Assembly: GCA_964629785.1 (NCBI GenBank) | Contig: CAZVRU010000001.1 | Span: 34,018 to 98,017 of the forward strand | Source of the DNA: an uncultured Planctomycetia bacterium | Lineage (GTDB): Bacteria; Omnitrophota; Gorgyraeia; Duberdicusellales; 4484-171 | DNA: 64,000 bases | Reading direction: 5' to 3' | In this document: piece by piece, positions 1 to 61,512 of the stretch | How positions within the stretch are numbered: the stretch's first letter is position 1 | Layout of the letters: each line of letters begins with the position of its first letter | Made by a program: the position numbers and the translations under genes | The notes under the pieces: model-generated | What the model was told of the DNA's origin: nothing | The model's input: only the letters and a program-made list of their open reading frames with translations | The model's database searches: none

Positions 1-2902
1 GAGAAGAGGCATAATTATCGCTGAGAGTGTTTTTTTCTTTCTCCAGTACTTTTATCTTTTCTCCAGCCAGAGATATTTCTTTTTCCGACTGATCATGATA
101 TTGTCTGATCTCATCATTAAGAGCCTCGATTACCCGGGCCTGGTCGTCGCGCAGAGAAGAGAGCTTCTCGTTCTCGCCGGAAAGCGAATCAGCCCGGGAC
201 TGAAGACCGGACAGCTGTCGGTCCATGTCTTTTACCTGCTGTTCCAGCCTGCGGTTGGCATCATCAAGATTTTTTACCCGCTGTTCAGACTGAACGGCTT
301 TGCCCTGAGTAGCAGCCAGTGCCTCAGTAAGCTCGTTGTTCCTGGCATTCTGTTCGGCAATAAGTTTTTCTGCCTCAGCCAGGTCCTTTCCCGACTTATC
401 TGCAACCGTTTGAATCTCCTGGTTTTCCTGTTGCAAATCATTATACGAAGCAGCCAGAGCAGTATTCTGCTCAGTCAGCGATCGGATTTCTTTTTGCAGC
501 CCGGCAGACTGCTGCCCGGCTGCCTGGGCCGCATCGCGGGCCTGGGCCAGTCCATTCTCCAGATCCTCTATCTTTTCCCTATACTCCCGAAGGGAATCGT
601 TGAGAGCTTCTATTTCCCGGGTAAATTTTTCTTCTGTCCTGGTATCACGGCGGGCCAGACGATTTCTGAAAGTTTCGACTTCTTTTTCCAGTTTGCTCAA
701 TTCCCGATCCTTACGGATAATTTCTTTTTCATAGGCCTCTTTTTCATCAGCCGCGGCTCTGGCTGTTTTATGGCTGCTTTCAGTTGCATCACTGATTTCC
801 TGGGCCAGACGATCCCTTTCCTGCGCCAGGGCGCTGTTTTCGGTACGCAAAGAATCTCTTTCTTTGACCAGCCCGTCTGCTTCATCTTTAAAATTTTCAT
901 TCCGCGATACGATTTCTCTATTGGTCTGCAAGGCTTCTTCCAGTGAAGTCTGATAGCCCTCCAGGGAAGAGGCCATTTCTTTGATCTTTTGCTGGAACTG
1001 AAGATTATCGTTCGTCAGCTTTTGATTATCTTTTTCCAGAGAAGCCAAACGTAAATTCATCTCCCTGACTGTTTTTTGATCTACGGTGTTCTTCTCGACC
1101 TCGGACTGCAGGACATCTCTCTGCTTTACGACCTCATCCCTGGCCTTCTGAACATCCCGGATCTGCTGCAGACCTTCTTTCTGCTGGGTCACCAGAAGGA
1201 ATTTTTCTCCCTGCAAAGCTTTTATCTGTTCTTTCAGGCTGTCGACCTCTGTCTTAAGCACAGCATTATTTTCATTGCTTTCCTGCAAAGCGTTATCGCT
1301 GCTGCTGAAACGTTTCTCGTTAGAAGCGAGCGTAGAGACCAACTTGTTTTTTTCCCTGTTCAAAGATTCTGCTTCCCGCAATAATTCTTCTTTTTCATTC
1401 TGCAGAAAATCGACTGTTTTTTCCAGAAATTCCACGGTCTCTCTCTGTTCCTGCAACTCACCGGAGAGATTATTTCTTTCTTTAACCAGCTGCGCGCTCC
1501 TGGCATCACTTTCATCACAGGCTTTTTGCAGACGGACGATCTCTTCGCCGGTCTGATCCTGCACTGCAGCCAGTTTTTGTTCATACTCCTGCAGGCGGGT
1601 CAGCAGGGACTGCCGCTCTTCTTCATACCGGGCCGTATCTCCTGCCTGGGAAACGGCTTCTTTATATTCGGCTACAGTATCCTGCAATTCAGCATTAGCC
1701 TTCTGCTGCCGGCTGAGCTGTTTTTCCAGTTCGGCAACGCGTCCGGCCATATCCTGTTCGGTTCGCCGGGCAGCAGCCCGCTCCTCTTTTGCTGTCGTGA
1801 GCGAATGTTCATACTCTGAGATATCCTCTTTTAATTCACTAATTTCTTTTTCCAGAACTTTTTTACCGGCAAAGTCGGCCCCGGAGGGAGCGATTTTATA
1901 AGCGGCTATTTCCCGGTCCTGCTCGCTGACCCGGCGACGCAACGAATCGTTCTCGACACGCAGCTGTCGCAGAGCTTCGGAAAGACGGTTGATCTCGTCA
2001 ACGGCCTGGGTCGAAGAAACACTTTCTGTCTCACCCAGAATATCGATAGCTTTCTGCAAAGACCCGATCTTTTGTTCGAAATCGCTTATGGTACGTTCAT
2101 ACCCTTCATTGTCCTGCCGTAACCGGGAAACATCTTCCCGGGCCTGTTGCCAGGACTGTTTATATTTCTCTGCTTCGGCCTGAATTTTTTTTCTTTCCTC
2201 ATCGAATTGGCTGCGCAATGCCGATTCGGATTCAATAGCCTGGCGGGAGACCCGCTGTTTAAGGGTCCGGACCTGCGACTCATAGGCTCTTTCTTTTTCC
2301 TTGGCATCCATGATATTCTTCTGAATGCGGCTGTCTTTTTCCAGAAGATAATCTTTAAGGCGGGCTATTTCCTGATTAAGGAATTCCAGCTGACGTATGT
2401 ATTTCGCTTCCTGGCTCTGAGCATCACCGGCTTTCTGGGTCAGCGACCTCTGTTCGGTCTGAAGAGCAGCCAGAGCATCACGAAGCTCGTTTATGGTGTT
2501 CTGGTATTTTTCTTCACGCCGGGCGGCCTGATCGAACTCTTCGTTCAATTCATCCAGATTCTTTTTATACTGATCGAGAGTTCCCTGGAGAATCGATTTT
2601 TCTCTTTCCAAAGCACTTTTTTCCAGAGAATATTTTTCTTCAAGCACATTTTTATACTCATTGAGCTGCTTCTGAAGCGACCTGTTCTCGGCTTTGGCTT
2701 TAGCCAGGTCATTGAGGGCGCGGTCAAGCGATTTCTGGACCAACCCTTCCAGAACAGTGGTCAAGGAATCGGATGTCTCGGCTGACGGCTCCTGAGCCGA
2801 CAGACAAGCCGGATATAAAAAAACAGCCGTAACCAGAACAGCAACGACTCCGATAATACCCAATACCTGCGATACTTTTTGTGACAAGTAATACTGTTTC
2901 AT
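1..2902 (-). CDS. Very large coiled-coil protein with an N-terminal signal peptide or membrane anchor. The C-terminus runs off the window (more than 967 codons visible).
   Basis: Absent from the ORF track because no stop codon lies inside the window. ATG at 2902-2900 is preceded by GAAAGGGG (rc of 2909-2916). Hand translation gives MKQYYLSQKVSQVLGIIGVVAVLVTAVFLYPACLSAQEPS, followed by E/K/Q/L/R-rich sequence. I checked segments TVLEGLVQKSLDRALNDLA (2758-2702) and KIKVLEKEKNTLSDNYASS (58-2). No stop-bounded minus ORF in this frame is listed for 1-2902. The plus-strand ORFs here are L/F/S/Q-rich mirror images. Confidence 0.8.
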   Translation of the reverse strand, partial: MKQYYLSQKVSQVLGIIGVVAVLVTAVFLYPACLSAQEPSAETSDSLTTVLEGLVQKSLDRALNDLAKAKAENRSLQKQLNEYKNVLEEKYSLEKSALEREKSILQGTLDQYKKNLDELNEEFDQAARREEKYQNTINELRDALAALQTEQRSLTQKAGDAQSQEAKYIRQLEFLNQEIARLKDYLLEKDSRIQKNIMDAKEKERAYESQVRTLKQRVSRQAIESESALRSQFDEERKKIQAEAEKYKQSWQQAREDVSRLRQDNEGYERTISDFEQKIGSLQKAIDILGETESVSSTQAVDEINRLSEALRQLRVENDSLRRRVSEQDREIAAYKIAPSGADFAGKKVLEKEISELKEDISEYEHSLTTAKEERAAARRTEQDMAGRVAELEKQLSRQQKANAELQDTVAEYKEAVSQAGDTARYEEERQSLLTRLQEYEQKLAAVQDQTGEEIVRLQKACDESDARSAQLVKERNNLSGELQEQRETVEFLEKTVDFLQNEKEELLREAESLNREKNKLVSTLASNEKRFSSSDNALQESNENNAVLKTEVDSLKEQIKALQGEKFLLVTQQKEGLQQIRDVQKARDEVVKQRDVLQSEVEKNTVDQKTVREMNLRLASLEKDNQKLTNDNLQFQQKIKEMASSLEGYQTSLEEALQTNREIVSRNENFKDEADGLVKERDSLRTENSALAQERDRLAQEISDATESSHKTARAAADEKEAYEKEIIRKDRELSKLEKEVETFRNRLARRDTRTEEKFTREIEALNDSLREYREKIEDLENGLAQARDAAQAAGQQSAGLQKEIRSLTEQNTALAASYNDLQQENQEIQTVADKSGKDLAEAEKLIAEQNARNNELTEALAATQGKAVQSEQRVKNLDDANRRLEQQVKDMDRQLSGLQSRADSLSGENEKLSSLRDDQARVIEALNDEIRQYHDQSEKEISLAGEKIKVLEKEKNTLSDNYASS

Positions 2903-3064
2903 CAGCGACCCCTTTCATTCATAGAATATAATGCCTGAATCCGGTCATGATTTTGTGTCGGGACTCCCAAAAGAAAGGATAAAAACAGTGTGCTCTTTAT
3001 TTTTTCATTCATGGCGGACAGCTCTGTGCCGAATTAACCGGCACCGTAAATCATCCTTGGAAGT

Positions 3065-3092
3065 ATTGTATCGGGCATACAGATGTTGTCAA
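3065..3092 (-). promoter_or_regulatory. sigma70-like promoter upstream of the coiled-coil gene
   Basis: On the minus strand: TTGACA (3092-3087), 16 nt spacer, TACAAT (3070-3065). This is about 165 nt upstream of the ATG at 2902. Confidence 0.5.
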
Positions 3093-3133: not shown

Positions 3134-5305
3134 TCATTTACAGCCGGATGTCACGAACCGGTACAGCTCGAGATCAGTGGCCGCTGACAGTATCTGCTGT
3201 CTGATCCCGCTGTCAATAAGTAATTTCGATATCTCGGCCATGAACTGCAGATGCGGCTCGCTGGCAGTGCGCGGTGAAAGAATGATCACAAAAATATGGG
3301 CCGGATTGCCGTCAAGTGACTGGAAGTCAAGGCCTTCCTTTTTAACTCCTATACCCCACACCAGGCGGTTCACGGCAGCGCTTTTGGCATGCGGCAACGC
3401 CACACCGTCCTGCATGCCGGTAGACACGCTTGCCTCTCTCTCCAGCAGATCGATAAGCGCCTGCTGACGGGCATCGTCTTTGAGCTGGCCTGATCTGACC
3501 AGCAGATCCACCAGTTCTTCGATAACTTCCTGTTTACTGTTACCTTTCAGGCTCACAGTCACGGCATTGGCATTAAGAGGAGCTAAAAAGAACGGATTAG
3601 GTCTTGTTTTCCGCTCGCCGGGGGAAAATATCTTTTTACCGACTTTTTCCTTGTCAGTAAAGGTCTGCAGATGTTTTATCACCCTTTCCAGTTCGGCGAT
3701 TACTTCATAAAATACCGTATGGACAAAAGGCACGTCTTTTTCCAGACAGTCGAAGACCAGACGTTTGGGAGTATAATTAAGGGTTATAAAGGTCTGCCCC
3801 TTACGTATCTGATAAAGGGTCTGGGGAAGGTTGATACGGTGCACATAGAACTGCTCTTCTTCAAAAGCTTCGACGACTTTGGTCAAAATAAGTTCGGCGG
3901 TTTCCGGATTGGGTGTAGGGTAGACCACCAGTTTGTGTTCGCTTTTCAAAGCCATGGTCTTGCGCATCGCCGGTTTTTTCGAACTGATCAGACGGGCCAG
4001 TATGGGCGGCGTCATCAGAGTGGTGACAAAGGCCATGATCACCACTATGCCGAAAGTATCATGCTGAATAAAACCCGAAGAAAGCCCCATAGCGGCAATG
4101 ATCAGGGCCACCTCGCCGCGCGGCACCATGCCCACGCCGATACGCAGAGCGCCGTGCGGGGTAAAGTTCAAAAACAATGCCGGTACACTGCAGCCCAGGA
4201 GCTTACCGAGAATAGCGGCAACGATATAGATCATGGCGAAAAGAACTATCGGTCCCGAAACTACCTCGTGAAAATCCACCATCATGCCCATCACGCAGAA
4301 AAACACCGGTACAAAAAACCTGTACAGCGGCGCGATATTTTCCTGGATAGTAAATGAAAGGTCGGTCTTGGACAAAGACAGGCCCATGATATAGGCACCG
4401 ATGACCAGGGCCAGGCCTGATTTCTCGAATATGCCGGCCAGAAAAAGAGCACAGGCAAAGCTCATTACGGCTATCGAAGTGCTGTCTTTGGCCTTTTTCA
4501 GCAATTCGCTTATCCGGGGAGAAAAAACAAGGCCGATAGCAGTAAAACCCAGCCATATGGCTATCGCTTTTAAAGAAATAACGCCTACCTGTCGCCAGGC
4601 CACATGACCGCTTTTGATGATCCCCACTACTATGGCCAGAACGATTATTCCCAGCACATCGTCGATGACTGCCGCGGAAAGGATAGTAACTCCTTCGGGA
4701 GAGTTCATCTTGCGTTTTTCCGACAGTATCCGGGCTGAAATACTGACCGAAGTGGCCACTGATATGACACCCAGGAACATAGCCACCGGGTGGGAAAACC
4801 CGTAGCGAACTCCGAAAAATAAAGGCGAAAAAAGTACTACTGCGCCGGCGCCGAGAATAAAACTGACCAGCAGTCCTCCCATCCCGACCAGAAAACCGGT
4901 AAAGGAAAGGCTCAAAAACATCTCGATATCGGTTTCCAGTCCCACCAGAAAAAGAAGGATTATTGAAGCGATGGTAGTAAAACTGTAAAGCTCGAAAGAG
5001 ACCGGCAACAGGGGATGAACCGGGAACAACCCCTCAGGGAACCCGGGCAAAGCCAGAGTGCCGAGTACTGACGGACCGATGATCACGCCGGTGATTATCT
5101 CCCCCAGTAATGCCGGGAATCCCATTTTCTCCGAAGCCAGACCGCCCAGACGGGCAGTAAATAAAATAATGCTCAGTTGGAAAACAAAAATCGCCATTTT
5201 GGCGGGTATATCCTCGGCCAGGGATTGTTCCTGGGCTTGCGCCGAAAATATCCAGAAAGCAACTACCAGAAAAAAAATTAATCCAACAGCGGTCTTTTTT
5301 GTCAT
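3134..5305 (-). CDS. Cation:proton antiporter (CPA2/Kef-like membrane domain) fused to a C-terminal PTS EIIA type-2 (PtsN/EIIA-Ntr-like) domain
   Basis: 723 aa. The N-terminus is signal-like (MTKKTAVGLIFFLVVAFWIFSAQAQE) and is followed by a polytopic Na_H_exchanger-like region of about 400 aa. The C-terminal ~150 aa carry the EIIA-2 signature GMQDGVALPHAKS (His639 codon at 3389-3391) and HIFVIILSP. Confidence 0.8.
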   Translation of the reverse strand: MTKKTAVGLIFFLVVAFWIFSAQAQEQSLAEDIPAKMAIFVFQLSIILFTARLGGLASEKMGFPALLGEIITGVIIGPSVLGTLALPGFPEGLFPVHPLLPVSFELYSFTTIASIILLFLVGLETDIEMFLSLSFTGFLVGMGGLLVSFILGAGAVVLFSPLFFGVRYGFSHPVAMFLGVISVATSVSISARILSEKRKMNSPEGVTILSAAVIDDVLGIIVLAIVVGIIKSGHVAWRQVGVISLKAIAIWLGFTAIGLVFSPRISELLKKAKDSTSIAVMSFACALFLAGIFEKSGLALVIGAYIMGLSLSKTDLSFTIQENIAPLYRFFVPVFFCVMGMMVDFHEVVSGPIVLFAMIYIVAAILGKLLGCSVPALFLNFTPHGALRIGVGMVPRGEVALIIAAMGLSSGFIQHDTFGIVVIMAFVTTLMTPPILARLISSKKPAMRKTMALKSEHKLVVYPTPNPETAELILTKVVEAFEEEQFYVHRINLPQTLYQIRKGQTFITLNYTPKRLVFDCLEKDVPFVHTVFYEVIAELERVIKHLQTFTDKEKVGKKIFSPGERKTRPNPFFLAPLNANAVTVSLKGNSKQEVIEELVDLLVRSGQLKDDARQQALIDLLEREASVSTGMQDGVALPHAKSAAVNRLVWGIGVKKEGLDFQSLDGNPAHIFVIILSPRTASEPHLQFMAEISKLLIDSGIRQQILSAATDLELYRFVTSGCK

Positions 5306-8174: not shown

Positions 8175-9860
8175 TCAGGAAAAGACCTCTTCCCGGCGGT
8201 CTTTCTCTTTTTTATGCGTCGTCCAGCGCATTTCGCTGAGCACGCCCTGGGCAATATTGGTAAGATGATCGCCGATCTTCTCGAAATTATCGACCAGATC
8301 AAGAAAGACGATCCCTGACTTCAGGTTGCACTGTCCGTTATTCAAACGGTTGACATGAGCTTTTTTCAGGTCGGTCTGAAGACGGTTGATGCGTTCTTCG
8401 CGCTGCAGGACGCTCTGGGCCAGGTCAAGATCGTTCTGCTGGAACGACTGCCTGGTTTCAATCATCATCCGGTGCAATTCGTCCCACATCCCGCTCAGCT
8501 CACCGCAGGCCTCGTCAGTAAAAGGGAGGTTCTCATCGACCCGGCGTTCCAGGGATTCGACGATATTTTCGGCGTGATCGCCGATCCGCTCGATATCGTT
8601 TACGCTGTGCAATAATACCGGCAATGACTCAGACTGTTCTTCGGAAAGGTTGCGCTGGGACAGTTCGATCAGATAATGGGTTATTTCCGACTGAAGATTG
8701 TCCACGGCATCTTCGATCTCATTGACCCGCCGGATCACTTTTATATTTTTTTCCAGAAAAGCTTTTACGGCCAGGGATACGGAACGCGAGGCCAGCTCCA
8801 GCATGCGGACCGACTCACGGCGGGCCTGTTCCAGAGCGATAGGCGGAGTATCGAGAAGATGTCTTTCCAGATACTGAGCGCCGGGCTCGATCGCTCCTTT
8901 GCGGGTCGGCACCAGCATCACCGACATCTTTTCCAGAAAAGACAAAAAAGGAAGAAAAATAACCGCATTGGCTACTTTAAATACGCTGTTAGCCACGGCA
9001 ATATAGAACATGATGTTCTTCAGAGTGACCGAACCGGGAATAATAAAATCGATGAACCGGACAAACCATCCGGTATAAACAAAAATAAGCATATAGGCAA
9101 CGCCGACTACATTGAACAGGGTATGGGACATCGCGGCCCGCCGGGCATTGCGGTTGGTGCCGATGGCTGCCAGCTGGGCAGTGATCGTGGTACCGATATC
9201 GCCTCCCAGTATCAATGGTATGGCCGCCGGAAAAGATATCAGTCCGTTAAAGGCCATAACCTGGATAACGGCGATAGTCGCGCTGGAGCTCTGTAAAAGC
9301 ATGGTAAAGGCCATGCCCACCACCACCCCCAGAAGCGGATCGCTGCCGAAAGAAAGAAAAAGCTGTTTTATATGCTGGCTCTGCTGCAGGGGGGCAAAAG
9401 CGTCCTTCATAAACCCCAGGCCTATGAACAACATGCCGAAACCCATAATTATCTGGCCCAATGATTTGGAATTACGGGTCTTGCCCAGAGCATTGACAAT
9501 GACCCCGATACCCACTGCCGGAAGGGCGTACTGAGTAATATTGAATACCGACATCGAAGAAACAAGCCAGGCCGTAAAGGTGGTACCGATGTTGGCACCG
9601 ATAATGACGCTGATAGCCTGGCGCAGGGCCAGAAGTCCGGCATTGACAAAACCGATGACCATTACGCTGGTAGCGCTGGAAGACTGGATAAAACAGGTGA
9701 CTGCCGCGCCGACCATAATGCCCATGAGCGGTATACGGGTCATCATATGCAGGATGTTCTTGAGACGGGTGCCGGCGATTTTTTTAAGACCGTCGGACAT
9801 TACCTGCATGCCGAAGAAAAAAAATCCCAGACCGCCGATCAGATAAAAAATCAATTGCAT
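8175..9860 (-). CDS. Na/Pi cotransporter family protein with C-terminal PhoU-like repeats (paralog 2)
   Basis: MQLIFYLIGGLGFFFFGMQVMSDGLKKIAGTRLKNIL..., two SSSAT-containing Na_Pi_cotrans repeats, and C-terminal NDIERIGDH / NFEKIGDH PhoU motifs. The ORF track starts at GTG 9869. I prefer ATG 9860 because both paralogs then begin MQLIF. Confidence 0.85.
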   Translation of the reverse strand: MQLIFYLIGGLGFFFFGMQVMSDGLKKIAGTRLKNILHMMTRIPLMGIMVGAAVTCFIQSSSATSVMVIGFVNAGLLALRQAISVIIGANIGTTFTAWLVSSMSVFNITQYALPAVGIGVIVNALGKTRNSKSLGQIIMGFGMLFIGLGFMKDAFAPLQQSQHIKQLFLSFGSDPLLGVVVGMAFTMLLQSSSATIAVIQVMAFNGLISFPAAIPLILGGDIGTTITAQLAAIGTNRNARRAAMSHTLFNVVGVAYMLIFVYTGWFVRFIDFIIPGSVTLKNIMFYIAVANSVFKVANAVIFLPFLSFLEKMSVMLVPTRKGAIEPGAQYLERHLLDTPPIALEQARRESVRMLELASRSVSLAVKAFLEKNIKVIRRVNEIEDAVDNLQSEITHYLIELSQRNLSEEQSESLPVLLHSVNDIERIGDHAENIVESLERRVDENLPFTDEACGELSGMWDELHRMMIETRQSFQQNDLDLAQSVLQREERINRLQTDLKKAHVNRLNNGQCNLKSGIVFLDLVDNFEKIGDHLTNIAQGVLSEMRWTTHKKEKDRREEVFS

Positions 9861-9953
9861 GGAAGACACCTGTGTTCAAACATTACCGGGGAAAAGAAGG
9901 CAGGAATTAACCATATTGGAAAAATATTTGAATATCCGCAATTCATTCGGGAT

Positions 9954-10021: not shown

Positions 10022-11686
10022 TCAGCTCAGATCATGTTTATGAAGTTTCCAGCGCATTTTGCCGATCACGCCTTCGGCAATATTGGTAAGATGATCGCCG
10101 ATCTTCTCGAGATTATCGATAAAATCTATGAATACCACTCCGGCCCTGAGATCGCAGCACGCTTTGCCCAGGCGATCGACATGGGCTTTTTTCAGTTCTT
10201 TCTGAAGCAGGTTGATCTTCTTTTCCCGGGACAAAACGCTCTGAGCTGCCCGGATATCGTTCTTTTTCAAGGCGATCCGGGTCTCGATACACATGCTGTG
10301 CAGTTCGTTCCACATCAAAGTCGCTTCCTGAAGCGCTTCATCGCTGAACTGAAGCTTCTCATCGATGGCCCGCTCGGCAAGTTCGACTATATTTTCCGAA
10401 TGATCGCCGATCCGCTCGATATCGTTTACGCTGTGCAAAAGTACCGGTAATGATTCGGAATATTCCGGAGAAAGATTATTCTGAGACAGTTCGACCAGAT
10501 AACAGGTGATCTCAGACTGAAGGCTGTCCACTGCTTCCTCCAGTTCCGGGATCTGCTTGAACAATCCCGACTGCCTTTCCAGAAAACTTTTTACCGCAGT
10601 GGACACCGAGGTAGTGGCTAAACCGAGCATCCTCACCATTTCTTTAACTGCCTGTTCCAGAGCTATCGCCGGCGTATTCAAAAGATGGCGTTCCAGGAAC
10701 TGAGGTTTAAGTTCCACTGCCCCTTTCTTTTTCGGGACCAGAATAACAGTCGCTTTTTCGATAAATCCAAGAAAAGGCAGAAACACCAGCGTGTTGGTCA
10801 CATTAAAAACGCTATGGGCCACGGCAATATAAAACATAACATTTTTCAGTGTGATACTGCCGGGAATAAGCATATCCACTGCCTTGACAAACCAGCCGCT
10901 ATAAACAAAACCCAGCATATACGCAGTACCGATCACATTGAACAGAGTATGGGACATGGCCACCCGCCGGGCATTGGTATTGGCACCGGCTGCGGCGATC
11001 TGGGCAGTTATAGTGGTACCGATATTATCTCCCAGTATCAGCGGGATGGCTGCCGGGAAAGAGATCAATCCGTTAAAAGCCAGTACCTGGACAATAGCAA
11101 TGGTAGCGCTGGAACTCTGCAGAAGCATGGTGGCGACGGTTCCCACCAGCACTCCCAGAAGCGGATTGCGGGCAAAACTGACAAAAAGCTCCTGGAGATG
11201 GGGGCTGTCACGCAGCGGTTCAAAAGCGTCTTTCATCATGCTCAGGCCCAGAAACAGCATTCCGAAGCCCATCAGCACCTGGCCCCAGAAACGTACGCTC
11301 TTCCTCCTGGCGAAGGTCAAAGTAAAAAACCCGATACCGATAGCCGGCAAAGCATAATGCGTAATCTTGAACACCGACATCGAGGAGACAAGCCAGGCCG
11401 TAAAGGTGGTACCGATATTGGCGCCCATGATCACGCTGATAGCCTGGCGCAGAGAAACAAGGCCGGCATTGACAAAACCGATGACCATGATGCTGGTAGC
11501 GCTGGAAGACTGGATAAAACAGGTGACTGCCGCGCCGACCAGTACGGCTATCAGCGGGACTCTGGTCATCATATGCAGGATATTCTTCAGGCGGGTGCCG
11601 GCGATCTTTTTAAGACCGTCGGACATTGTCTGCATACCGTAAAAGAAAAGGCCTAATCCTCCGATAAGAAAAAATATAAGCTGCAT
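10022..11686 (-). CDS. Na/Pi cotransporter family protein with C-terminal PhoU-like repeats (paralog 1)
   Basis: MQLIFFLIGGLGLFFYGMQTMSDGLKKIAGTRLKNIL... It has the same architecture as 8175-9860. The ORF-track start at 11713 is a TTG codon, and ATG 11686 aligns with the paralog. Confidence 0.85.
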   Translation of the reverse strand: MQLIFFLIGGLGLFFYGMQTMSDGLKKIAGTRLKNILHMMTRVPLIAVLVGAAVTCFIQSSSATSIMVIGFVNAGLVSLRQAISVIMGANIGTTFTAWLVSSMSVFKITHYALPAIGIGFFTLTFARRKSVRFWGQVLMGFGMLFLGLSMMKDAFEPLRDSPHLQELFVSFARNPLLGVLVGTVATMLLQSSSATIAIVQVLAFNGLISFPAAIPLILGDNIGTTITAQIAAAGANTNARRVAMSHTLFNVIGTAYMLGFVYSGWFVKAVDMLIPGSITLKNVMFYIAVAHSVFNVTNTLVFLPFLGFIEKATVILVPKKKGAVELKPQFLERHLLNTPAIALEQAVKEMVRMLGLATTSVSTAVKSFLERQSGLFKQIPELEEAVDSLQSEITCYLVELSQNNLSPEYSESLPVLLHSVNDIERIGDHSENIVELAERAIDEKLQFSDEALQEATLMWNELHSMCIETRIALKKNDIRAAQSVLSREKKINLLQKELKKAHVDRLGKACCDLRAGVVFIDFIDNLEKIGDHLTNIAEGVIGKMRWKLHKHDLS

Positions 11687-11730
11687 GGTATCGCTGCTCT
11701 TTCCGGTCGGCAACTCAAGGCAGACCAGCT

Positions 11731-15034: not shown

Positions 15035-15730
15035 TTATCTGATATCCGAGGAAAGGATTATCGCTTCAGCGACTTCTTTCATGGGCAGGCGCTTGTTCAT
15101 ACTGGTCTTACGGATAAGGGTATAGGCTTCGTCTTCGGAAAGACCCCGCTGTTTCATCAGAATACCTTTGGCCTTTTCTGTTTTTTTGCGGGCCTCCAGC
15201 TCTTCCTGGACGATCTGCGACTGGACCATCAGCTCGGTATTCTCTATGGCCACGGCAGCCTGATTGGCAACCATACTGAGCAGATCTTTGTCGTTCCTGG
15301 TGAATTTATACGGCTCGGTAGTATAGCAGTTGATCACTCCCACTACCTTTTTTTTCACCATCATCGGAACACTGAGCATCGAAGCCAGACCTAATTTTTT
15401 AGCCAGTTCTTTTTCCTTGTAATCGTCTTCGGCCAGAACGTCCTGAATGGCCATTACCTTCTTTTTTTTGGCAACCTTGCCGACGACCCCTTCTCCCACT
15501 TTCAATATCCGCTCTTTCAGATATTCTTTGTCCATGGCCTGAGTGGCACGGATGCGCAGGCTTTGAGTCTGCTCATCCACCAGCCAGAGAGAACATATCT
15601 CGGCCTTCATCACATTGGCAGTAAGCGTGACGACCAGTTTCAGCACATCTTCCAGATAAAGGTCGCTGGTGATCGCTTTACTGATCTTGCCCAGGGTATC
15701 GATATAAGCCTTGTAAGAAGAGATCCTCAT
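15035..15730 (-). CDS. GAF plus ANTAR domain RNA-binding antitermination-type regulator
   Basis: 231 aa. The N-terminal half is GAF-like. The C-terminus has an ANTAR pattern: ELEARKKTEKAKGILMKQRGLSEDEAYTLIRKTSMNKRLPMKEVAEAII. Confidence 0.8.
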   Translation of the reverse strand: MRISSYKAYIDTLGKISKAITSDLYLEDVLKLVVTLTANVMKAEICSLWLVDEQTQSLRIRATQAMDKEYLKERILKVGEGVVGKVAKKKKVMAIQDVLAEDDYKEKELAKKLGLASMLSVPMMVKKKVVGVINCYTTEPYKFTRNDKDLLSMVANQAAVAIENTELMVQSQIVQEELEARKKTEKAKGILMKQRGLSEDEAYTLIRKTSMNKRLPMKEVAEAIILSSDIR

Positions 15731-15754: not shown

Positions 15755-17089
15755 TTAAAGTATCGGTAAATAGGTACTGATCTCGTATTCATGTACCCGT
15801 TTACGGTATTCGTCCCATTCTATTTTTTTGCTGGCGATAAGATTGGAAAAGGTATGTTCCCCCAGGGTCGTTTTCAGCAGATCGCTTTTCTCGGCTATCT
15901 CGATCGACTCGATCAAACTGCCGGGAAGCAGATCTATCCCCATATCGATCATTTCCTGATAGCTGAGGTGATAAACGTCCCGTTCAGTGGCTTCGGGAAG
16001 CATTTCTTTATCGTCAATGCCTTTCAGGCCGGCGGCAAGCATACTGGCAAAAGCCAGATAAGGGTTGCAGGCCGGATCAGGCGAACGGAATTCGATACGG
16101 GTAGCATTTTCTTTTCCCGGTTTATAAATCGGTACCCTGACCAGAGTGCTGCGGTTACGCCGGCCCCAGCAGACATATACCGGCGCTTCGTAACCGGGAA
16201 CCAGACGCTTATAGGAATTAACCCACTGGTTGCAGACCAGAGTTATTTCCCGGGAATATTTAAGCAGACCGGCGACATAAGCTTTTGCTTCCGGAGAAAG
16301 GAAGGCCTGATCCTCGGGATCGAAAAAGGCATTGCTGTTGCCCCGGAACAAAGACTGATGAACATGCATACCGCTGCCGCACACTCCATATACCGGTTTG
16401 GGCATGAAAGTGGCATAAAACCCGTGCTTCTGGGCTATCTCTTTTACCACCATCCGGTAGACCATGACTATATCGGCCATGTTCAAAGCTTCTGTATAGC
16501 GCAGATCTATCTCATGCTGAGAAGGCGCGACCTCGTGATGCGAATATTCCACATGAATACCCATCTGTTCCAGAGTAAGGATTATCTCCCGGCGCACTTC
16601 GTTCCCGGCATCAAGGGTCGTAATATCGAAATATCCTCCCTCATCCAGCATCTGGGTCGATTTTTCGTCTTTGAAAATAAAAAATTCCAATTCCGGACCG
16701 ATATAATAATCATAACCTTTATCCTTGGCCTGCTGCAGTATCTTTTTAAAAATAAACCGCGAGTCTCCCTGATAGGGGGTGCGATCGACATTAAGAATAT
16801 CGCAAAGCATTCCGGCCACGGCTTTTTCTCTGGGACGATAAGGTAGCAGGGTAAACGTCGAAGGATCAGGCATGGCGATCATGTCTGATTCGTCGATGCG
16901 GGCAAACCCCCTTATCGATGAACCGTCGAATCCCATTCCTTCTTCCAGGGCCGATTCCAGTTCTTCTTTGGTGATCGTAAACCCCTTCATCTGGCCGGTG
17001 ATGTCGGCAAACCAGAGGCGGATGAATTTTACGTCATTTTCCTTTACCAGACGCAGGATATCTTTTTTGGAATAATTTTTTCCGTTCAT
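15755..17089 (-). CDS. glnA: Glutamine synthetase, type I (short, 444 aa)
   Basis: FIRLWFADITGQMKGF, GFDGSSIRGF, YYIGPELEFF, HHEVAPSQHEID, GSGMHVHQSL. An AAGGAG Shine-Dalgarno sequence is present. Confidence 0.95.
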   Translation of the reverse strand: MNGKNYSKKDILRLVKENDVKFIRLWFADITGQMKGFTITKEELESALEEGMGFDGSSIRGFARIDESDMIAMPDPSTFTLLPYRPREKAVAGMLCDILNVDRTPYQGDSRFIFKKILQQAKDKGYDYYIGPELEFFIFKDEKSTQMLDEGGYFDITTLDAGNEVRREIILTLEQMGIHVEYSHHEVAPSQHEIDLRYTEALNMADIVMVYRMVVKEIAQKHGFYATFMPKPVYGVCGSGMHVHQSLFRGNSNAFFDPEDQAFLSPEAKAYVAGLLKYSREITLVCNQWVNSYKRLVPGYEAPVYVCWGRRNRSTLVRVPIYKPGKENATRIEFRSPDPACNPYLAFASMLAAGLKGIDDKEMLPEATERDVYHLSYQEMIDMGIDLLPGSLIESIEIAEKSDLLKTTLGEHTFSNLIASKKIEWDEYRKRVHEYEISTYLPIL

Positions 17090-29015: not shown

Positions 29016-29381
29016 TTACTGGCCGGGCTGCAGATACTGACTGATAATCGAATCCAGCATTTCCAGTTCGATCGGTTTGACTAGATAATCATCAGCTCCC
29101 AGTTTCTTGGCCCGCATGATCGCCGGCTTATCTTCCCGGGCAGTGATCATTATCACCTTGGCGTCACTGTCGTTTTCACGGATCTTTTCCAGGACAAAAA
29201 ATCCGTCCTCACCGGGCATTCGCACATCGAGAAGCACAAGATGCGGACGTTCTTTTCCGAACATCTCCAGGGCCTGACGGGCATTGGTTGCCGTAAACAC
29301 TTCCGCGCCTTTGCGCCTGAGAAAATTCTTTAAAAAAGCAACGACCTCTACTTCATCGTCGACAGCAAGAACTTTTACCAT
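29016..29381 (-). CDS. Stand-alone response-regulator receiver domain (CheY-like)
   Basis: 121 aa. VLAVDDE, LVLLDVRMPGEDG, MITA, and K in DDYLVKP. A GGGAGG Shine-Dalgarno sequence is present. Confidence 0.9.
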   Translation of the reverse strand: MVKVLAVDDEVEVVAFLKNFLRRKGAEVFTATNARQALEMFGKERPHLVLLDVRMPGEDGFFVLEKIRENDSDAKVIMITAREDKPAIMRAKKLGADDYLVKPIELEMLDSIISQYLQPGQ

Positions 29382-49895: not shown

Positions 49896-51098
<1,203 letters not shown>

Positions 51099-51139: not shown

Positions 51140-53206
51140 TTACAGCCCGATTATTTTAACCATCAATTCTGATGGAACTTTTTCGTAATATAAAGGCTCT
51201 ATTGTATAAGAAGCTCGCCCCTGTGTCAAGTTTCTTAATGCATCAGCGTAGTTAAAAACTTCAGCCAGAGGCACTTCAGCCCGCACCACTTTCACATTTT
51301 TGCGCTCCGAAATATTGCTTATCCTGGCCCGCTTGGTATTCAGGTCGGCAATGGTCTGGCTCAGATAGACCTCGGGAGTTATCACCTCCAGGCCCATGAT
51401 CGGTTCAAGTAATACCGAACCGCCCTTGCGCAATCCTTCTTTGACCGCCATTTCCGCCGCGATTTTGAACGACAATTCGCTGGAATCCACATCATGATAG
51501 GAACCGTCGGTCAATATCAGTTTTACGTCGGTCAGCTGATATCCGGCAAGAACCCCGCTTTCGGCTGCTTCCAGCACGCCTTCCTTGACTGACGGCAGAA
51601 ATTCTTTGGGAATCACCCCGCCTTTTATCCTGGTATCATAAACAATTCCCGAACCTTTTTCGCCCGGTGAGACAAGCAGGACCACATGTCCGTACTGGCC
51701 TTTCCCCCCGCTCTGCTGGATAAACTTGCCCACAGCCTCGACATTGCGGGTAATGGTCTCTTTATAAGCAACACAGGGTTTACCGACTTTGGCTATTACG
51801 TTAAAATCGTTTACCAGCCGGTCCACCACCACTTCCAGATGAAGCTGGCCCATACCGGAAATGATATTCTGGCCGGTATCTTTGTTGTATACTACCTTAA
51901 AAGAAGGATCTTCGTCAGACAATTTCTGCAGGGCCGTTACCAGTTTATCCTGATCCTGCTGGGTCTTGGGCTCGATAGCCAGAGATACTACCGGTTCAGG
52001 AAAACGCATCTCTTCCAGAAGCATCGGTTTCTTGAAATCACAGAGGGTGTCGCCGGTGGTGGTTTCTTTAAAACCTACCAGACAGACGATATCACCGGCC
52101 CGGGCCTCGTTGACTATCTCCTGTTTATTGGCATGCATGCGCACTATCTTGCTCACCCGCTCTTTGATCTTCTTTGCCGCGTTATAGACATCCTGACCGG
52201 GCACGATCTTGCCGCAATAAATACGGGTATAAAAAAGTTTGCCCACGAAAGGATCGGTAAAAACCTTGAAACATAATCCGCAAAAAGGGCTTTTATAAGA
52301 TACATCCCTTTCCTCGAATTCTTTTCCGTCGACAGTAAGGCCTTTGACCAGTTTCAGATCGCGCGGCGACGGCAGCCAGTCGCATACGGCATCCAGCAAA
52401 GGCTGAATACCCTTGTTCTTCAGGGAAGAACCGCAAAGCACCGGGGTCAGCTTATTTCCGAGAACGTATTTGCGTATCAGAGATACGATCTCCGTCCGGC
52501 TGACTTCCTGGCCGTCTATATACTTATTCATGAATTCGTCATCAAGTTCGGACAACTTATCGATAATGCGGTTATAATACTGTTCGGCCCGCTCTTTCAT
52601 GTTTTCGGGAATATCCCGGCAGACCACGTCTACGCCGCCTTCTTTTTCGAAATAAAGCGCCTTCTGGGCAAGTACGTCGATAACCCCGATAAAAACGTCG
52701 TTTTCGTCGTAAAGCGGCAATTGCACGGCAACGGGATTAGCTGCCAGTTTTTCGTCCATCTCCTGGATTACATGATAAAAATCAGCGCCCACCCTGTCCA
52801 TTTTATTGACAAAGGCAATGCGGGCCACTTTATATTTATCGGCCTGACGCCAGACCGTCTCGCTCTGAGGCTCAACTCCGCCCACGCCGCAGAAGATCAC
52901 CACTGTCCCGTCAAGTACTTTCAGGGAACGCTCGACTTCCGCCGTGAAATCGATATGTCCCGGCGTATCGATGATGTTGATCATGCAGTCTTTCCATTTA
53001 CAGTGAGTGGCGGCGCTGGTTATGGTGATGCCGCGCTGTCGTTCCTGCTGCATCCAGTCAGTGGTCGCCGTGCCCGAATCCACTTCGCCGATCCGGTAGA
53101 CCACCCCGCTGTAAAAAAGTACCCGCTCCGTAGTAGTGGTCTTTCCCGCGTCGATGTGAGCGACAAAACCGATATTACGGATAAGGTCAAGTTCTTCTTT
53201 TTTCAT
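51140..53206 (-). CDS. fusA: Elongation factor G
   Basis: [31 protein letters not shown]. The ORF-track start at 53251 is a TTG codon. ATG 53206 ([13 protein letters not shown]) matches the usual EF-G N-terminus. The start remains somewhat uncertain. Confidence 0.95.
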
Positions 53207-57100: not shown

Positions 57101-58096
57101 ATTCTGGCGGAAACGCCCCTGTTTTCCCTTAAGCATATCGGAAAGGCTCTTTAAAGGCCTGCTCTGATGGCCCATGACCGGACGGCCGTGTCTGCCGTTC
57201 TCGATCAATGCATCTACTGCTTCCTGAAGCATCCGTTTTTCATTGCGGATGATTATTTCCGGAGCACCGAGCGACATTAATTTCTTAAGACGGTTATTTC
57301 TATTGATCACCCGGCGGTAAAGATCATTGAGATCGGAAGAAGCGAACCGTCCTCCTTCCAGAGGTACCAGCGGTCTGAGATCAGGGGGGATCACCGGCAC
57401 TGCTTCCAGGATCATCCATTCGGCATGGTTACCGGAACGGCGCAGATCCTCGATTATCTTGAGGCGGCGCAGGACCTTTTTATTCTGAGCCGCGGCCTTG
57501 CTGGAAGCGATTTCTTCCCGGATCTCCTGGCTCAATTTCGCAAAATCTATATTCTGCAGTAATTCTTTTATGGCTCCGGCACCGATACCGATCTTGATCC
57601 GGCCCTTATATTCTTCCATGGCCTTGCGGTACTCTTCTTCATTAAGCAACTGCATCTTTTTATAGGGAGTGTCACCCGGATCAATAACCACATGTTCTTC
57701 GTAATAAACGACCTTTTCCAGGGACTTGACCCCCAGATCGAGAATAGCGCCGATACGGGAAGGGATCACTTTAAAAAACCAGATATGGGTACAGGGAGCG
57801 GCCAGGTCGATGTGCCCCATTCTCTGACGGCGCACCGAAGAATGCAGCACTTCCACGCCGCAACGGTCGCATTTCATACCTTTGAACTTGATCCCTTTAA
57901 GTTTACCGCAGTGACATTCCCAGTCTTTGACCGGACCGAAAATACGTTCGCAGAAAAGGCCGTCTTTTTCCGGTTTCAAAGTACGGTAGTTCAGAGTCTC
58001 GGCCTTTCTTACTTCTCCGCTGGACCAGCTTTTGATTATCTGGGGAGAAGCAAGTTTTATCGTGATCTTATCGAAAAAGGTGGCCTCTTCTATCAT
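54116..58096 (-). CDS. rpoC: DNA-directed RNA polymerase subunit beta'
   Basis: Zn-finger [23 protein letters not shown] and catalytic NADFDGDQM. The start is set at ATG 58096, which forms an ATGA overlap with the rpoB stop. The ORF-track start at 58132 lies inside rpoB. Confidence 0.97.
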
Positions 58097-61000
58097 ATCT
58101 TTATCTCCTTTTCGGCGCGCACGTCCAGACACAATCCCTGCAGCTCCTTCATCAATACATTGAACGATTCCGGCACCGAAGGTTTGAATTTCTGTTCACC
58201 GCGAACGATCGCCTCATAGATCCTGGTCCTTCCTTCCACGTCATCGCTCTTTACGGTAAGCATTTCCTGAAGAGTAAAGGCAGCACCGTAAGCTTCCAAA
58301 GCCCATACTTCCATTTCCCCGAAACGCTGTCCGCCGAACTGGGCTTTTCCTCCCAGCGGCTGCTGGGTTATCAGCGAATAGGGACCGATAGCCCGGGCAT
58401 GGATCTTGTCGTCCACCATATGCACCAGCTTAAGAACATACATATATCCTACGGCTACTTTCTGGGCAAAAGGTTTACCGCTGAACCCGTCATGAAGAGT
58501 CACTTTGCCGTCCTCCGGTAAATCAGCCTTTCTAAGAAGCTCCCGCATCTTTTCTTCAGTCACTCCTTCGAATACCGGAGTGGCGACCTTGATCCCCAGA
58601 CGTTTTGCCGCCCAGCCCAGATGAGTCTCCAGGAGCTGTCCGACATTCATACGGGAAGGAACGCCGAGAGGATTAAGTACTACGTCTACCGGCGTACCGT
58701 CGGCAAGAAAAGGCATATCCTCTTCAGGCAGAATACGGGCGATAACACCCTTGTTCCCGTGGCGGCCGGAAAGTTTGTCTCCGACCGAGATCTTTCTTTT
58801 CATGGCCACATAAACGACCACCCGCTTTAAAACACCGGCAGGAAGCTCGTCGCCTTTTTTGATCTTGGCGGTTTCCAGCTCCATCTCCATATCCAGTTCC
58901 TGAAGACGCTCTTCATAAATAGCGTTCAGGGCCCTGGCTTCCTCATCCTCTTCGATATCGCGATCGGTTATCTTTGCTTCGGACTTGTTCAGGATGCCGG
59001 ACAATCTCTGAAGACGCTCTTTTTCCACCAGCTCTTTTTCCTCGGTGTAATATTTATCTATCTGACGCAATTTCCGCAGCTCTTCGGTCTTTTCCTTTTT
59101 AGACTTGCGGCCGCGCTCTTTGCGCTGAAACACTTCTACGTTGATGATCACACCATTGATCCCGGGCGGAACCCGCAGAGAAGAATCTTTTACGTCAGCC
59201 GCTTTTTCGCCGAAAATCGCGCGCAGCAGGCGCTCTTCAGGCGAAAGCTCTTTTTCGGTCTTGGGCGTAACCCTGCCTACCAGGATATCATCAGGCATTA
59301 CTTCAGCGCCGACCCTGATAATACCCTTATCATCGAGATTCTTCAAAGCCTCTTCGCTGACATTGGGGATATCCCTGGTTATTTCTTCATTACCCAGGCG
59401 GGTTTCCCTGGCTTCCATCTCGAATTTTTCGACATGTACCGAGGTCAAAGCGTCTTCTTTGACCAGACGCTCATTAATCACGATAGCATCTTCGAAGTTA
59501 TATCCCCGCCAGGACATAAAAGCAACAAGAAGATTGCGGCCCAGGGCCAGTTCACCGTTATGAGTCGCCATACCGTCGGCAATTACATCACCTTTGCGCA
59601 CTGTATCGCCTCTATTGACCAGAGGACGCTGATTGATGGCGGTATCGGCATTGGAACGGTGGAATTTTTTCATATTATATATGAATTTACCTACTTTAAT
59701 ATGCGACGCATCGACCTCGTCCACTGTGCCCGATTCTTTTGCCGATACCAGAGCGCCGCTCTCTTTAGCTACCTTTAATTCAGCGCCGGTGGCGACATAG
59801 GGTTCTTCGGGAAATAAAAGAGGTACTGACTGGCGCTGCATGTTGGAACCCATAAGAGCGCGGTTAGCATCATCATGCTCCAGAAAAGGTATGCAGGCCG
59901 CAGCCACGGAAACGATCTGTTTGGTGGAAATATCCATATATTCCACCTGCTTGGGGTCTACCTTGGGGAATTTGCCCTTGTAGCGGCAATAGATCTTTTT
60001 ATCGAGTATAGTGCCGTCTTCGCTTATATTAGAAGATACCTGGGCGATCATTCTCACTTCTTCTTCGTCGGAAGTAAGATATTCTATCTTATCCAGAACC
60101 TTGCCGTCTTCGACTTTACGGTAGGGCGTAATAAGAAATCCCAGCGGGTTGATGCGGACATAGGAAGTAAGCGAAGTGAGAAGACCGATATTAGGGCCTT
60201 CCGGTGTTTCGATCGGACATATTCTTCCATAATGCGAAGGGTGCACGTCGCGCACTTCGAACCCGGCCCTTTCCCGGGAAAGACCGCCCGGCCCCATAGC
60301 CGAAAGACGTCGTTTATGCGTTATCTCGGCCAGAGGATTGGTCTGGTCCATAAACTGCGACAAAGGACTGCGGGCGAAGAAATCGTGCAACTGCACGGAA
60401 AAAGCCCGTGAATTTATCAAATGCTGAATGGAAAAATCAGTATTCGATACCAGAGAACAACGTTCGGCAAAAGTACGTTCGACCCGCAAAAGTCCGATAC
60501 GCACCTGGTGCTGAAGCAGTTCACCGATAAGCTTGGTCCTGCGGTTTGACAGATGATCGATATCGTCTATCTCTCTTTCCCCGCCTTTAACTTTAAGCAG
60601 GGTCTTAATGATCTCGACCACTGTTTCCTGGTCTATGATCCGTTTGCTCAAAGAAACATTGGCATTTAATTTTTTGTTAAGGAGGTACCGACCGATCCGG
60701 GCCAGATCATAGCGCCGGGGATCGAGGAACATGCGTTTAAACACTTCCTTGGCCGCTTCCAGGGTTATCGGTTCGGTAGGTCTCATCTTTTTATAAAAAT
60801 CAAGATAAGCCTCTTCTTTGTTTTTGGTGGAATCTTTTTTTACGGTATTGACTATTTCCGGATAGGGTTTATCGGAAAATATTTTATATATGTCTTCGTT
60901 GGTGGAAAGGCCCAGAATACGCAGAACCTGAGTGGCAGGAAACGACTTGCGGCGGTCGATGATCGCAGTGATCGTATCAGTGACGTCACAGCGGAATTCC

Positions 61001-61512
61001 AGCCAATACCCGCGGTAAGGGATGATCCGCGCATAGTAAAGACGCTTACCCGTGGGATGCAGTTCTTCTTCAAAAAATACGCCGGGCGAACGCTGCAGCT
61101 GGCTGACAATAGCCCGTTCATCTCCGTTGATGATGAACGAACCTATATCGGTCATCAAAGGGATGTCTCCCAGATAGATCTCCTGTTCTTTGACTATATT
61201 GTCCTGGCCGACGAGCCGCAGACGGACCCGCAGGGCAGAAGCAAAAGTCTGAGAACGGCGCTTGCATTCTTCGGCATTATAGCGGGGTCTGCTCAGCGCG
61301 TAGGAAACGAATTCCAGCTGATACTGTTTATCAGGAGATTCCATGGGGAATACTTCATTGAATATCTCCTGCAAACCGACGTTCTTCCTCTTTTCAGGGA
61401 CTACATCCATCTGCAAGAACTGCTTAAACGAACTAAGCTGATGCTCAAGCAGATGAGGCATCGGGTGATCTTTCTTTGTTCTGGAAAAGACCTCTCTTTT
61501 CACCCACTTCAT
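58093..61512 (-). CDS. rpoB: DNA-directed RNA polymerase subunit beta
   Basis: 1139 aa. [67 protein letters not shown]. Confidence 0.98.

Follow-up and report, generated by a model that had tools for sequence, protein, structure and literature searches.

The stretch of DNA analysed in this work, hereafter the window, comprises 64,000 nucleotides (nt) of contig CAZVRU010000001.1 (GenBank assembly GCA_964629785.1), and it opens with the 5' part of a minus-strand gene that encodes a long coiled-coil protein and continues beyond window position 1. An annotation made earlier from the sequence and a list of open reading frames (ORFs), here called the original prediction, had proposed a single long gene of this kind, missing from the list, and a product with an N-terminal signal or anchor followed by an extremely long rod. 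We characterized the gene, its product, its relatives and its surroundings by computational approaches. The features of the locus are as follows:

3065 to 3092, minus strand: predicted sigma-70-type promoter, TTGACA-16-TACAAT, matching at 11 of 12 positions.
3026 to 3044, minus strand: stem-loop with a 7-base-pair stem (6 Watson-Crick pairs and one G-U pair) and a 5-nt loop.
2902 to 3012, minus strand: mini-ORF of 36 codons, whose TGA (2904-2902) overlaps the ATG of the main gene (2902-2900) as TGATG.
2909 to 2915, minus strand: Shine-Dalgarno-like AAAGGGG, 6 nt before the ATG at 2902, read from the sequence.
1 to 2902, minus strand: coding sequence of the coiled-coil protein, of which the first 967 codons are visible; it continues past window position 1.
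2795 to 2902, minus strand: residues 1-36, putative Sec-type signal peptide or uncleaved N-in anchor, MKQYYLSQKVSQ-VLGIIGVVAVLVTAVFLYPACLSA/QE.
2555 to 2764, minus strand: residues 47-116, conserved N-terminal head, defined by the invariant columns of alignments A1 and A2.
2 to 2773, minus strand: residues 44-967, alpha-helical heptad rod, defined by periodicity, a register map and AlphaFold2 modelling.

Translation of positions 2-2902 of the minus strand gave 967 sense codons and no stop, a run whose chance probability is about (61/64)^967, or approximately 1e-20; the proposal of one long gene leaving the window was thus borne out, and no overlooked in-frame stop was found within it. The nearest in-frame upstream stop is a TGA at 2917, and ATG 2902 is therefore the earliest possible start. 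The ORF is absent from the ORF listing because it leaves the window, illustrating that ORF tracks drop frames running off a window and may list antisense shadow ORFs instead. Only short ORFs are listed here, together with two F/L/I-rich antisense ORFs on the plus strand, 95-946 (283 amino acids) and 2147-2785 (212 amino acids), which lie inside the coiled-coil gene and seem to be shadow ORFs arising from the abundance of GAA, CAG and CTG codons in it. The G+C content is approximately 0.49 both in the gene region and in the whole window, and nearly all the long gene-like ORFs of the window share the minus strand; hence, the gene is not compositionally foreign.

The product carries a sole hydrophobic segment, located at the N-terminus: the Kyte-Doolittle maximum over 19 residues is 2.53 (residues 16-34), and past residue 50 no window of that length exceeds 0.48. 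K-rich residues precede a hydrophobic core of 17-20 residues, positions -6 and -3 to -1 are occupied by Pro and L-S-A, respectively, and the mature N-terminus starts with a short acidic linker. In the AlphaFold2 model this region appears as a helix (residues 6-28) followed by a disordered, low-confidence linker (residues 29-43). We infer that signal peptidase I may cleave at LSA/QE, as suggested earlier, a site in agreement with Pro/Gly close to -6 and with small residues in positions -3 and -1. The same feature is present in all three relatives described below, whose signal segments end LYA/Q, LSA/A and SAGA/Q, with K/R-rich residues before and acidic residues after. A bacterial lipoprotein was considered and rejected: the lipobox [LVI][ASTVI][GAS]C does not match L-Y-P-A-C33, which has Y at -3 and P at -2, and C33 is not conserved in the relatives. 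In all four homologues, Lys/Arg/His residues stand before the hydrophobic segment and Asp/Glu residues after it. According to the positive-inside rule, the basic flank of a membrane segment stays in the cytoplasm; consequently, the N-terminus is predicted to be cytoplasmic and the rod to be translocated. This charge distribution backs the placement of the rod outside the cytoplasmic membrane made by the original prediction, and export is the reading that we favour.

Beyond the N-terminus, where only E/K/Q/L/R-rich heptad-like sequence had been noticed, the protein consists of at least 920 residues of heptad repeat and no globular domain. The hydrophobic power spectrum rises sharply at a single period, 3.5 (value 3.0; the other tested periods reach 0.17 or less), lags 7, 14 and 21 stand out as maxima of the BLOSUM autocorrelation (z = 8.8, 7.7 and 5.2), and 53% of 28-residue windows lie above the 95th percentile of shuffles. 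A stringent per-residue map resolved in-register runs of up to approximately 90 residues (96-190, 753-843), and a coarser 28-residue scan found a single register from about 750 to 930; register shifts are present, with one clear break near residues 339-346 (IAPSGADFAG). An AlphaFold2 run on residues 1-291 with a four-sequence alignment modelled residues 44-290 as one uninterrupted helix, with a predicted local distance difference test score (pLDDT) of approximately 90-96. Beyond the N-terminus, E, L, A, Q, K, S and R are abundant and Pro and Cys scarce (3 and 2 residues, respectively), and the heptad core is occupied by L, I, N and V at position a and by L, A and Y at position d. Leu at d with Ile, Val or Asn at a classically marks parallel coiled coils of two strands, and on this ground we infer that the rod adopts that arrangement; residues 46-967 would span approximately 137 nm if extended. 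As for internal repetition beyond the heptads, no DNA tandem repeats were found in the gene and repeats at the protein level are marginal, the top off-diagonal score being 28.5 bits where heptad-preserving shuffles reach up to 22.7; thus the rod is not a recent repeat array.

When 1.84 billion protein cluster representatives were scanned exhaustively with phmmer, exactly three weak relatives emerged (P0001-P0003), with E values of 8.6e-9, 7.9e-8 and 1.9e-5. The alignments pair query residues 34-200, 25-256 and 27-256 with residues 28-194, 20-251 and 35-268, all in register from the relatives' own N-termini. P0001 (MBN2484037.1) is partial and annotated as "hypothetical protein [Candidatus Omnitrophica bacterium]", and P0002 (781 amino acids) and P0003 (893 amino acids) are complete proteins. 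BLASTP against a database of these three sequences gave 30-33% identity, with E values from 1e-11 to 8e-15. The shared head, SLTTVLEGLVQKSLDRALNDLAKAKAENRSLQKQLNEYK in the window and SLFEACEAIIDKSLDNVLEDLVRIKAENRELKSELEKYR in the relatives, follows the motif L-x4-E-x4-KSLD-x4-DL-x3-K-x-EN-x2-L-x3-L-x2-Y, on to YK-x2-L, where the residue before the final motif Y is E or K, giving L-x-(E/K)-Y. Alignment A2 holds 30 invariant columns, and the head region alone yields significant matches in the 1.84-billion library and in BLASTP.

Both complete relatives are helical throughout and lack an enzymatic or anchor domain; no Pfam family was found in them above cut-off, and neither YadA_anchor nor Gram_pos_anchor matched. 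Their shared last 186 residues, modelled from the alignment of the two proteins, form helix only, and this C-terminal region of approximately 190 residues ends ...LQSTTW. A counterpart of it was sought in the visible part of the window protein and rejected, the match at residues 207-379 being marginal (score 105, against 81 +/- 8.5 for shuffles, with 2 of 200 as good). P0002 and P0003 are 60-84% identical at their ends and 30-36% identical in the middle, where an indel of about 100 residues occurs, and conserved ends with a divergent middle constitute the pattern expected of a fibre that binds through its ends. Around residues 270-470 of P0003 (locus L082, 4057-6738) we observed an internal duplication of approximately 100 residues (AAAADQNRRII..LKGELLR.KERLSEKE..LLAQSQQKL..) without counterpart in P0002, showing that segment duplication alters the length of the rod in this family.

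Further searches added little to the group. A metagenome profile scan retrieved only the 1.1-kb fragment L086, closely similar to P0003, and the metagenome scan with the window protein itself gave no match; a scan of viral contigs found no homologue. In a word-indexed search, the 967-residue fragment returned nothing at E <= 1e-5 among the best 8000 candidates, and the N-terminal profile A2 returned nothing, not even its three member relatives, so that the word index seems blind to this coiled-coil family. The window protein and its relatives (P0001-P0003 and L086) have in common the signal peptide, the acidic linker, the KSLD...DL...K-x-EN...L...Y head, helical heptads, the lack of a Pfam domain, a promoter of their own and a Shine-Dalgarno site, of the GGGAAGG type in the relatives. 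They differ in that the identity of about 30% is confined to approximately the first 150-250 residues, in the length of the protein (more than 967 codons in the window, versus 781 and 893 amino acids), in the leader (about 155 nt in the window, versus about 32-41 nt) and in the gene upstream, which is an HPP gene in the relatives and a Na+/H+ antiporter-EIIA gene in the window. The gene order in the relatives is HPP membrane protein, coiled-coil gene, TPR, TPR, PAS and response regulator, followed in L082 by a PilZ gene on the opposite strand, and both TPR proteins bear signal-peptide-like N-termini. Apparently, judging from the sequences compared, the window protein belongs to a very small, uncharacterised, Omnitrophota-restricted family of exported fibrous proteins.

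Taken together, we consider it moderately probable that this region holds the 5' part of a genuine Omnitrophota gene with a promoter of its own and, jointly with this, that the product of the gene is a fibre of two parallel strands, exported through Sec and at least 137 nm long, serving as a structural scaffold of the envelope or surface in a small Omnitrophota family. The signal would direct the chain across the cytoplasmic membrane, and would then be removed by cleavage after A36 or stay in place as an N-in anchor. Because at least 137 nm is too long to span the periplasm end-on, the rod would run alongside the envelope or protrude from it and have a structural role, be it that of a scaffold, a spacer or a fibre; its length is comparable to the cell size of approximately 200 nm reported for the phylum. 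The ends would act as interaction sites and the middle would evolve freely, conserved ends having been found in the P0002/P0003 pair only, and in the relatives the likely partners would be the two downstream TPR proteins. Among the functions put forward originally, a periplasmic or surface scaffold fits best; the adhesin stalk found no support in the complete relatives, where no Pfam anchor family exceeded the threshold and the last 186 residues were modelled as helix, and a cytoskeleton-like element, if cytoplasmic, is disfavoured by the charge distribution. With low confidence, we also contemplate a more specific version, namely a lineage-specific Omnitrophota "periskeleton" or a tether for host or prey contact, in which a fibre about as long as the cell is wide, and perhaps far longer should the rod extend into the unseen part, with periplasmic TPR partners and conserved ends, would set the envelope or contact distance through its length-variable rod.

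Several points weigh against this interpretation. Export, signal cleavage, oligomeric state and the scaffold role are all deduced from the amino acid sequence, and the C-terminus lies beyond the window, so that a catalytic, anchoring or binding domain may be located there. The homology covers about 150 N-terminal residues at 30% identity, and coiled-coil composition inflates such scores. In addition, the 1.84-billion scan found no ortholog from closer Omnitrophota (RpoB 83-89% identical), though their genomes exist, and thus the gene is either fast-evolving or sporadic. Regarding the neighbourhood, a Na+/H+ antiporter-EIIA gene is found upstream in the window where the relatives have HPP, and the downstream side of the coiled-coil gene falls outside the window.

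Over the 967 residues, Pfam gave sub-threshold coiled-coil noise and no domain above cut-off, and NCBIfam gave SMC, Rad50 and ASRP arm matches scoring 16-82 bits where the cut-offs demand 300-1087 bits. In PHROGs, the one weak match was to a tape-measure family (E = 2e-4) and is regarded as coiled-coil noise, and searching PDB sequences, whether by the single protein or by the profile, gave either no match or generic coiled coils. A Foldseek comparison of the AlphaFold2 model (residues 1-291) with the PDB, one of the checks proposed at the outset, returned nothing below E = 8. The statement that no enzymatic domain is recognisable therefore holds for the visible part. Nevertheless, the protein might be a modular envelope protein in which the signal and the coiled-coil stalk precede a functional domain in the unseen C-terminus, such as an EnvC/PcsB/CwlO-type hydrolase or activator (LytM, CHAP, NlpC/P60), a tether of the OmpA-like or peptidoglycan-binding kind, or a protein resembling TolA. 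The window ends before the gene does, the 967 visible codons already exceed the complete relatives (781 and 893 amino acids), the visible part holds no convincing counterpart of the relatives' C-terminal 186 residues, and the combination of a signal, a coiled coil and a C-terminal hydrolase is recurrent in bacteria, as in EnvC, PcsB, CwlO and RipC. Conversely, the complete homologues have no Pfam family and end in modelled helix, the coiled coils of EnvC-, PcsB- and CwlO-type proteins comprise approximately 200-250 residues and not more than 900, and neither a TolA model match nor an adjacent tolQ or tolR was found. We thus regard a modular architecture as a possible though unlikely account.

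Two well-known families were considered individually. For SMC/Rad50, the best NCBIfam match, TIGR02168, scored 81.5 bits against a cut-off of 567 and covered arm positions only, and residues 1-36 form a hydrophobic signal where a Walker-A head would be expected, which excludes an SMC-like protein for the N-terminal half. For TolA, the other family that the C-terminal part had been thought capable of revealing, no NCBIfam or Pfam model matched the visible part at E <= 0.1, and the neighbours are the antiporter, xthA and an MCP gene, with no tolQ or tolR.

Less probable is a cytoplasmic, membrane-tethered cytoskeletal protein in an N-out/rod-in orientation, similar to EzrA or to crescentin/FilP-type proteins. 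EzrA also combines a single N-terminal hydrophobic segment with a long coiled coil, and the core of the window protein, at 17-20 residues, has sufficient length to act as a membrane anchor. However, the positive-inside rule points in the opposite direction in all four homologues, with basic residues before and acidic residues after the segment; moreover, the segment ends with a Pro/Gly helix breaker and a small-x-small motif, like cleaved signal peptides, and no match to EzrA or any other cytoskeletal model was found in Pfam or NCBIfam. On these grounds, an EzrA-type protein was rejected and the cytoskeletal reading seems improbable.

The leader of the gene was also analysed. The promoter, which had been placed about 165 nt upstream as the best candidate, has a -10 hexamer ending 163 nt before the ATG; it looks real and would be a strong promoter of the gene's own, giving a predicted 5' untranslated region of approximately 155 nt. 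Sites matching at 11 of 12 positions number three in the whole window on both strands (128 kb counted), and 27 of 5000 shuffled leaders (0.5%) contain one. The only other TTGACA-N16-18-TATAAT matches of this quality in the window are at 51229 (minus) and 48788 (plus); the former, found where the gene for EF-G ends (3') and immediately upstream of that for EF-Tu (49896-51098), is a candidate internal promoter of tuf. A terminator scan found no terminator-like site between the antiporter and coiled-coil genes, and read-through from the antiporter gene is possible. The GC hairpin, described originally with a 6-base-pair stem, is present with the 7-base-pair stem listed above; it has a folding energy of -11.6 kcal/mol (z = -3.05), is located about 14-32 nt into the predicted transcript, and is not an intrinsic terminator because no U-tract follows it, nor was it called by the terminator scan. 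In the mechanism that we propose, transcription would proceed from the near-consensus sigma-70 promoter, and the 5' stem-loop may stabilise or protect the 5' end of the mRNA.

The mini-ORF and its TGATG overlap exist in the sequence as first described, yet the functional stop/start coupling attributed to them did not hold up. A regulatory leader in which translation of the mini-ORF is coupled to that of the main gene by termination-reinitiation, with the hairpin modulating access, would take advantage of elements that are all in place, including a main Shine-Dalgarno site inside the last codons of the mini-ORF, and overlapping stop and start codons are a known coupling arrangement. On the other hand, no purine-rich Shine-Dalgarno site precedes the mini-ORF ATG, and the main ATG has a good one of its own; a comparable ORF occurs in 773 of 20,000 shuffled leaders (3.9%); folding of the whole leader falls short of significance (z = -1.39), and Rfam gave no match to it. 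In the relatives, the leaders of about 32-41 nt stand behind a conserved TGATATAAT extended -10 element and contain no upstream ORF, with GAGGGAAGGAAAG or AAAGGGAA at the Shine-Dalgarno place. Such regulation is therefore very improbable, and the mini-ORF is probably fortuitous and not a functional gene. We also observed that the leader is short and nearly identical among the relatives' loci (L081 296-420, L082 3976-4075, L083 9900-10020 and L086 680-790), sharing the extended -10 element CCGNTTAAAATNCTGATATAAT and the Shine-Dalgarno sequence GGGAAGGAAAG, and that the coiled-coil gene starts with GTG in L081, L082 and L083.

With respect to the organism, the closest non-identical matches of the window RpoB (58093-61512) are 83-89% identical, descending to 73% among the matches listed, and those that bear an organism name (at most 83% identical, among the matches listed) are all Candidatus Omnitrophica or Omnitrophota, which places the organism in the phylum Omnitrophota. 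The cells of most members of this phylum are reported to measure approximately 0.2 um (PMC10066038). The gene upstream of the coiled-coil gene, 3134-5305 on the minus strand, encodes a protein with Na_H_Exchanger and C-terminal PTS_EIIA_2 domains and a signal-like N-terminus. Its relatives amount to 272 with a match, at 35-56% identity, mainly in metagenome-assembled genomes (MAGs) of Omnitrophota, Spirochaetes, Kiritimatiellia and Lentisphaerae; in 80 antiporter loci (the best 50-56% identical, from Omnitrophota/Auribacterota MAGs) neither a homologue of the coiled-coil protein nor a long E/K/Q/R-rich ORF was found downstream. Elsewhere in the window, the only gene resembling the relatives' neighbourhood is a generic response-regulator match at 29031-29375.

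RpoB, EF-Tu and XthA of the source contig are in the protein collection; neither the coiled-coil product nor the antiporter is, and the latter gave no match in exact look-ups with two alternative starts. XthA, a 123-residue protein and the MCP were located only on a 3-kb Logan contig (SRR2187629) that ends before the antiporter, and EF-Tu on a 30-kb Logan contig. The public contig may end inside the coiled-coil gene. Other observations in the window include two adjacent paralogues on the minus strand (8175-9869 and 10022-11713), each with a Na+/Pi cotransporter domain fused to PhoU domains, and a GAF-ANTAR regulator gene identified by Pfam (15035-15730, minus), directly downstream on the same strand of a 444-residue ORF (15755-17089, minus) that resembles glutamine synthetase, as judged from sequence only. 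The arrangement suggests a putative RNA-antitermination link to nitrogen control.

The least probable of the readings that we weighed is that the visible residues are the N-terminal stalk of a multi-thousand-residue membrane-associated protein: the organism is an Omnitrophota member, the phylum is reported to be rich in very long membrane-associated proteins, mostly with a signal peptide or transmembrane helices and with N-termini devoid of identifiable domains (bioRxiv 10.1101/2023.11.21.568195; 10.64898/2026.06.07.730766), and the product is missing from the protein library although others of the same contig are present, but this absence is equally explained by a contig end cutting the gene, the homologues are complete at 781 and 893 residues, and the described giants contain many membrane-spanning regions together with SecA-DEAD or other domains, whereas here a single segment and no domain were found in 967 residues. 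The Omnitrophota giants of the archaeovorin and dockerin types thus resemble the window protein in the phylum, in a signal-bearing, domain-less N-terminal region and in a predicted extracytoplasmic location, and differ from it in exceeding 10,000 residues and in possessing a large number of transmembrane helices along with domains of the SecA-DEAD or carbohydrate-active kind, features lacking in the 967 residues, and in that the complete homologues of the window protein are shorter than 900.

Returning to the proposed exported fibre, it has a likeness of concept among known systems. CrvA and CrvB of Vibrio cholerae are presented as periskeletal polymers (Bartlett et al. 2017, Martin et al. 2021, as cited in PMC8938487). 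They share with the window protein the concept of a signal-peptide-bearing, coiled-coil-rich protein that builds a structural polymer in the periplasm and not in the cytoplasm; for the window protein, filament formation and a role in cell shape would be conjecture. SMC and Rad50 proteins have similarly long heptad arms, capable of antiparallel pairing, to which the scores of the window protein are confined, far under the cut-offs (567-1087 bits); they carry a Walker-A head where it has a hydrophobic signal, and it is predicted to be extracytoplasmic. CrvA, for its part, is much shorter than the window protein. TolA and the EnvC/PcsB/CwlO-type proteins also join an N-terminal anchor or signal to a long helical region in the envelope, but the helical region of the window protein is 4-5 times longer, its visible part matches neither TolA nor LytM/CHAP/NlpC-P60, it lacks a tolQR or ftsEX context, and its complete homologues have no C-terminal domain. 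Finally, trimeric autotransporter adhesins and Gram-positive M proteins terminate in a YadA barrel or an LPXTG end, in contrast to P0002 and P0003, in which the corresponding anchor models had no match.

In summary, the protein is best described as an uncharacterised variant within the known class of bacterial extracytoplasmic coiled-coil proteins, in a coiled-coil family invisible to domain databases. Long hypothetical coiled-coil proteins are common, the evidence is computational and the protein incomplete, and the interest of the finding is accordingly moderate. If the proposed interpretation is correct, these uncultured bacteria of very small size would possess an exported coiled-coil rod, devoid of enzymatic activity, that rivals the dimensions of the cell, providing a candidate envelope skeleton, spacer or attachment fibre in a phylum suspected of being host-dependent or predatory; furthermore, a second, unrelated family would broaden the extracytoplasmic coiled-coil polymers, which are known from few bacteria (e.g., CrvA).

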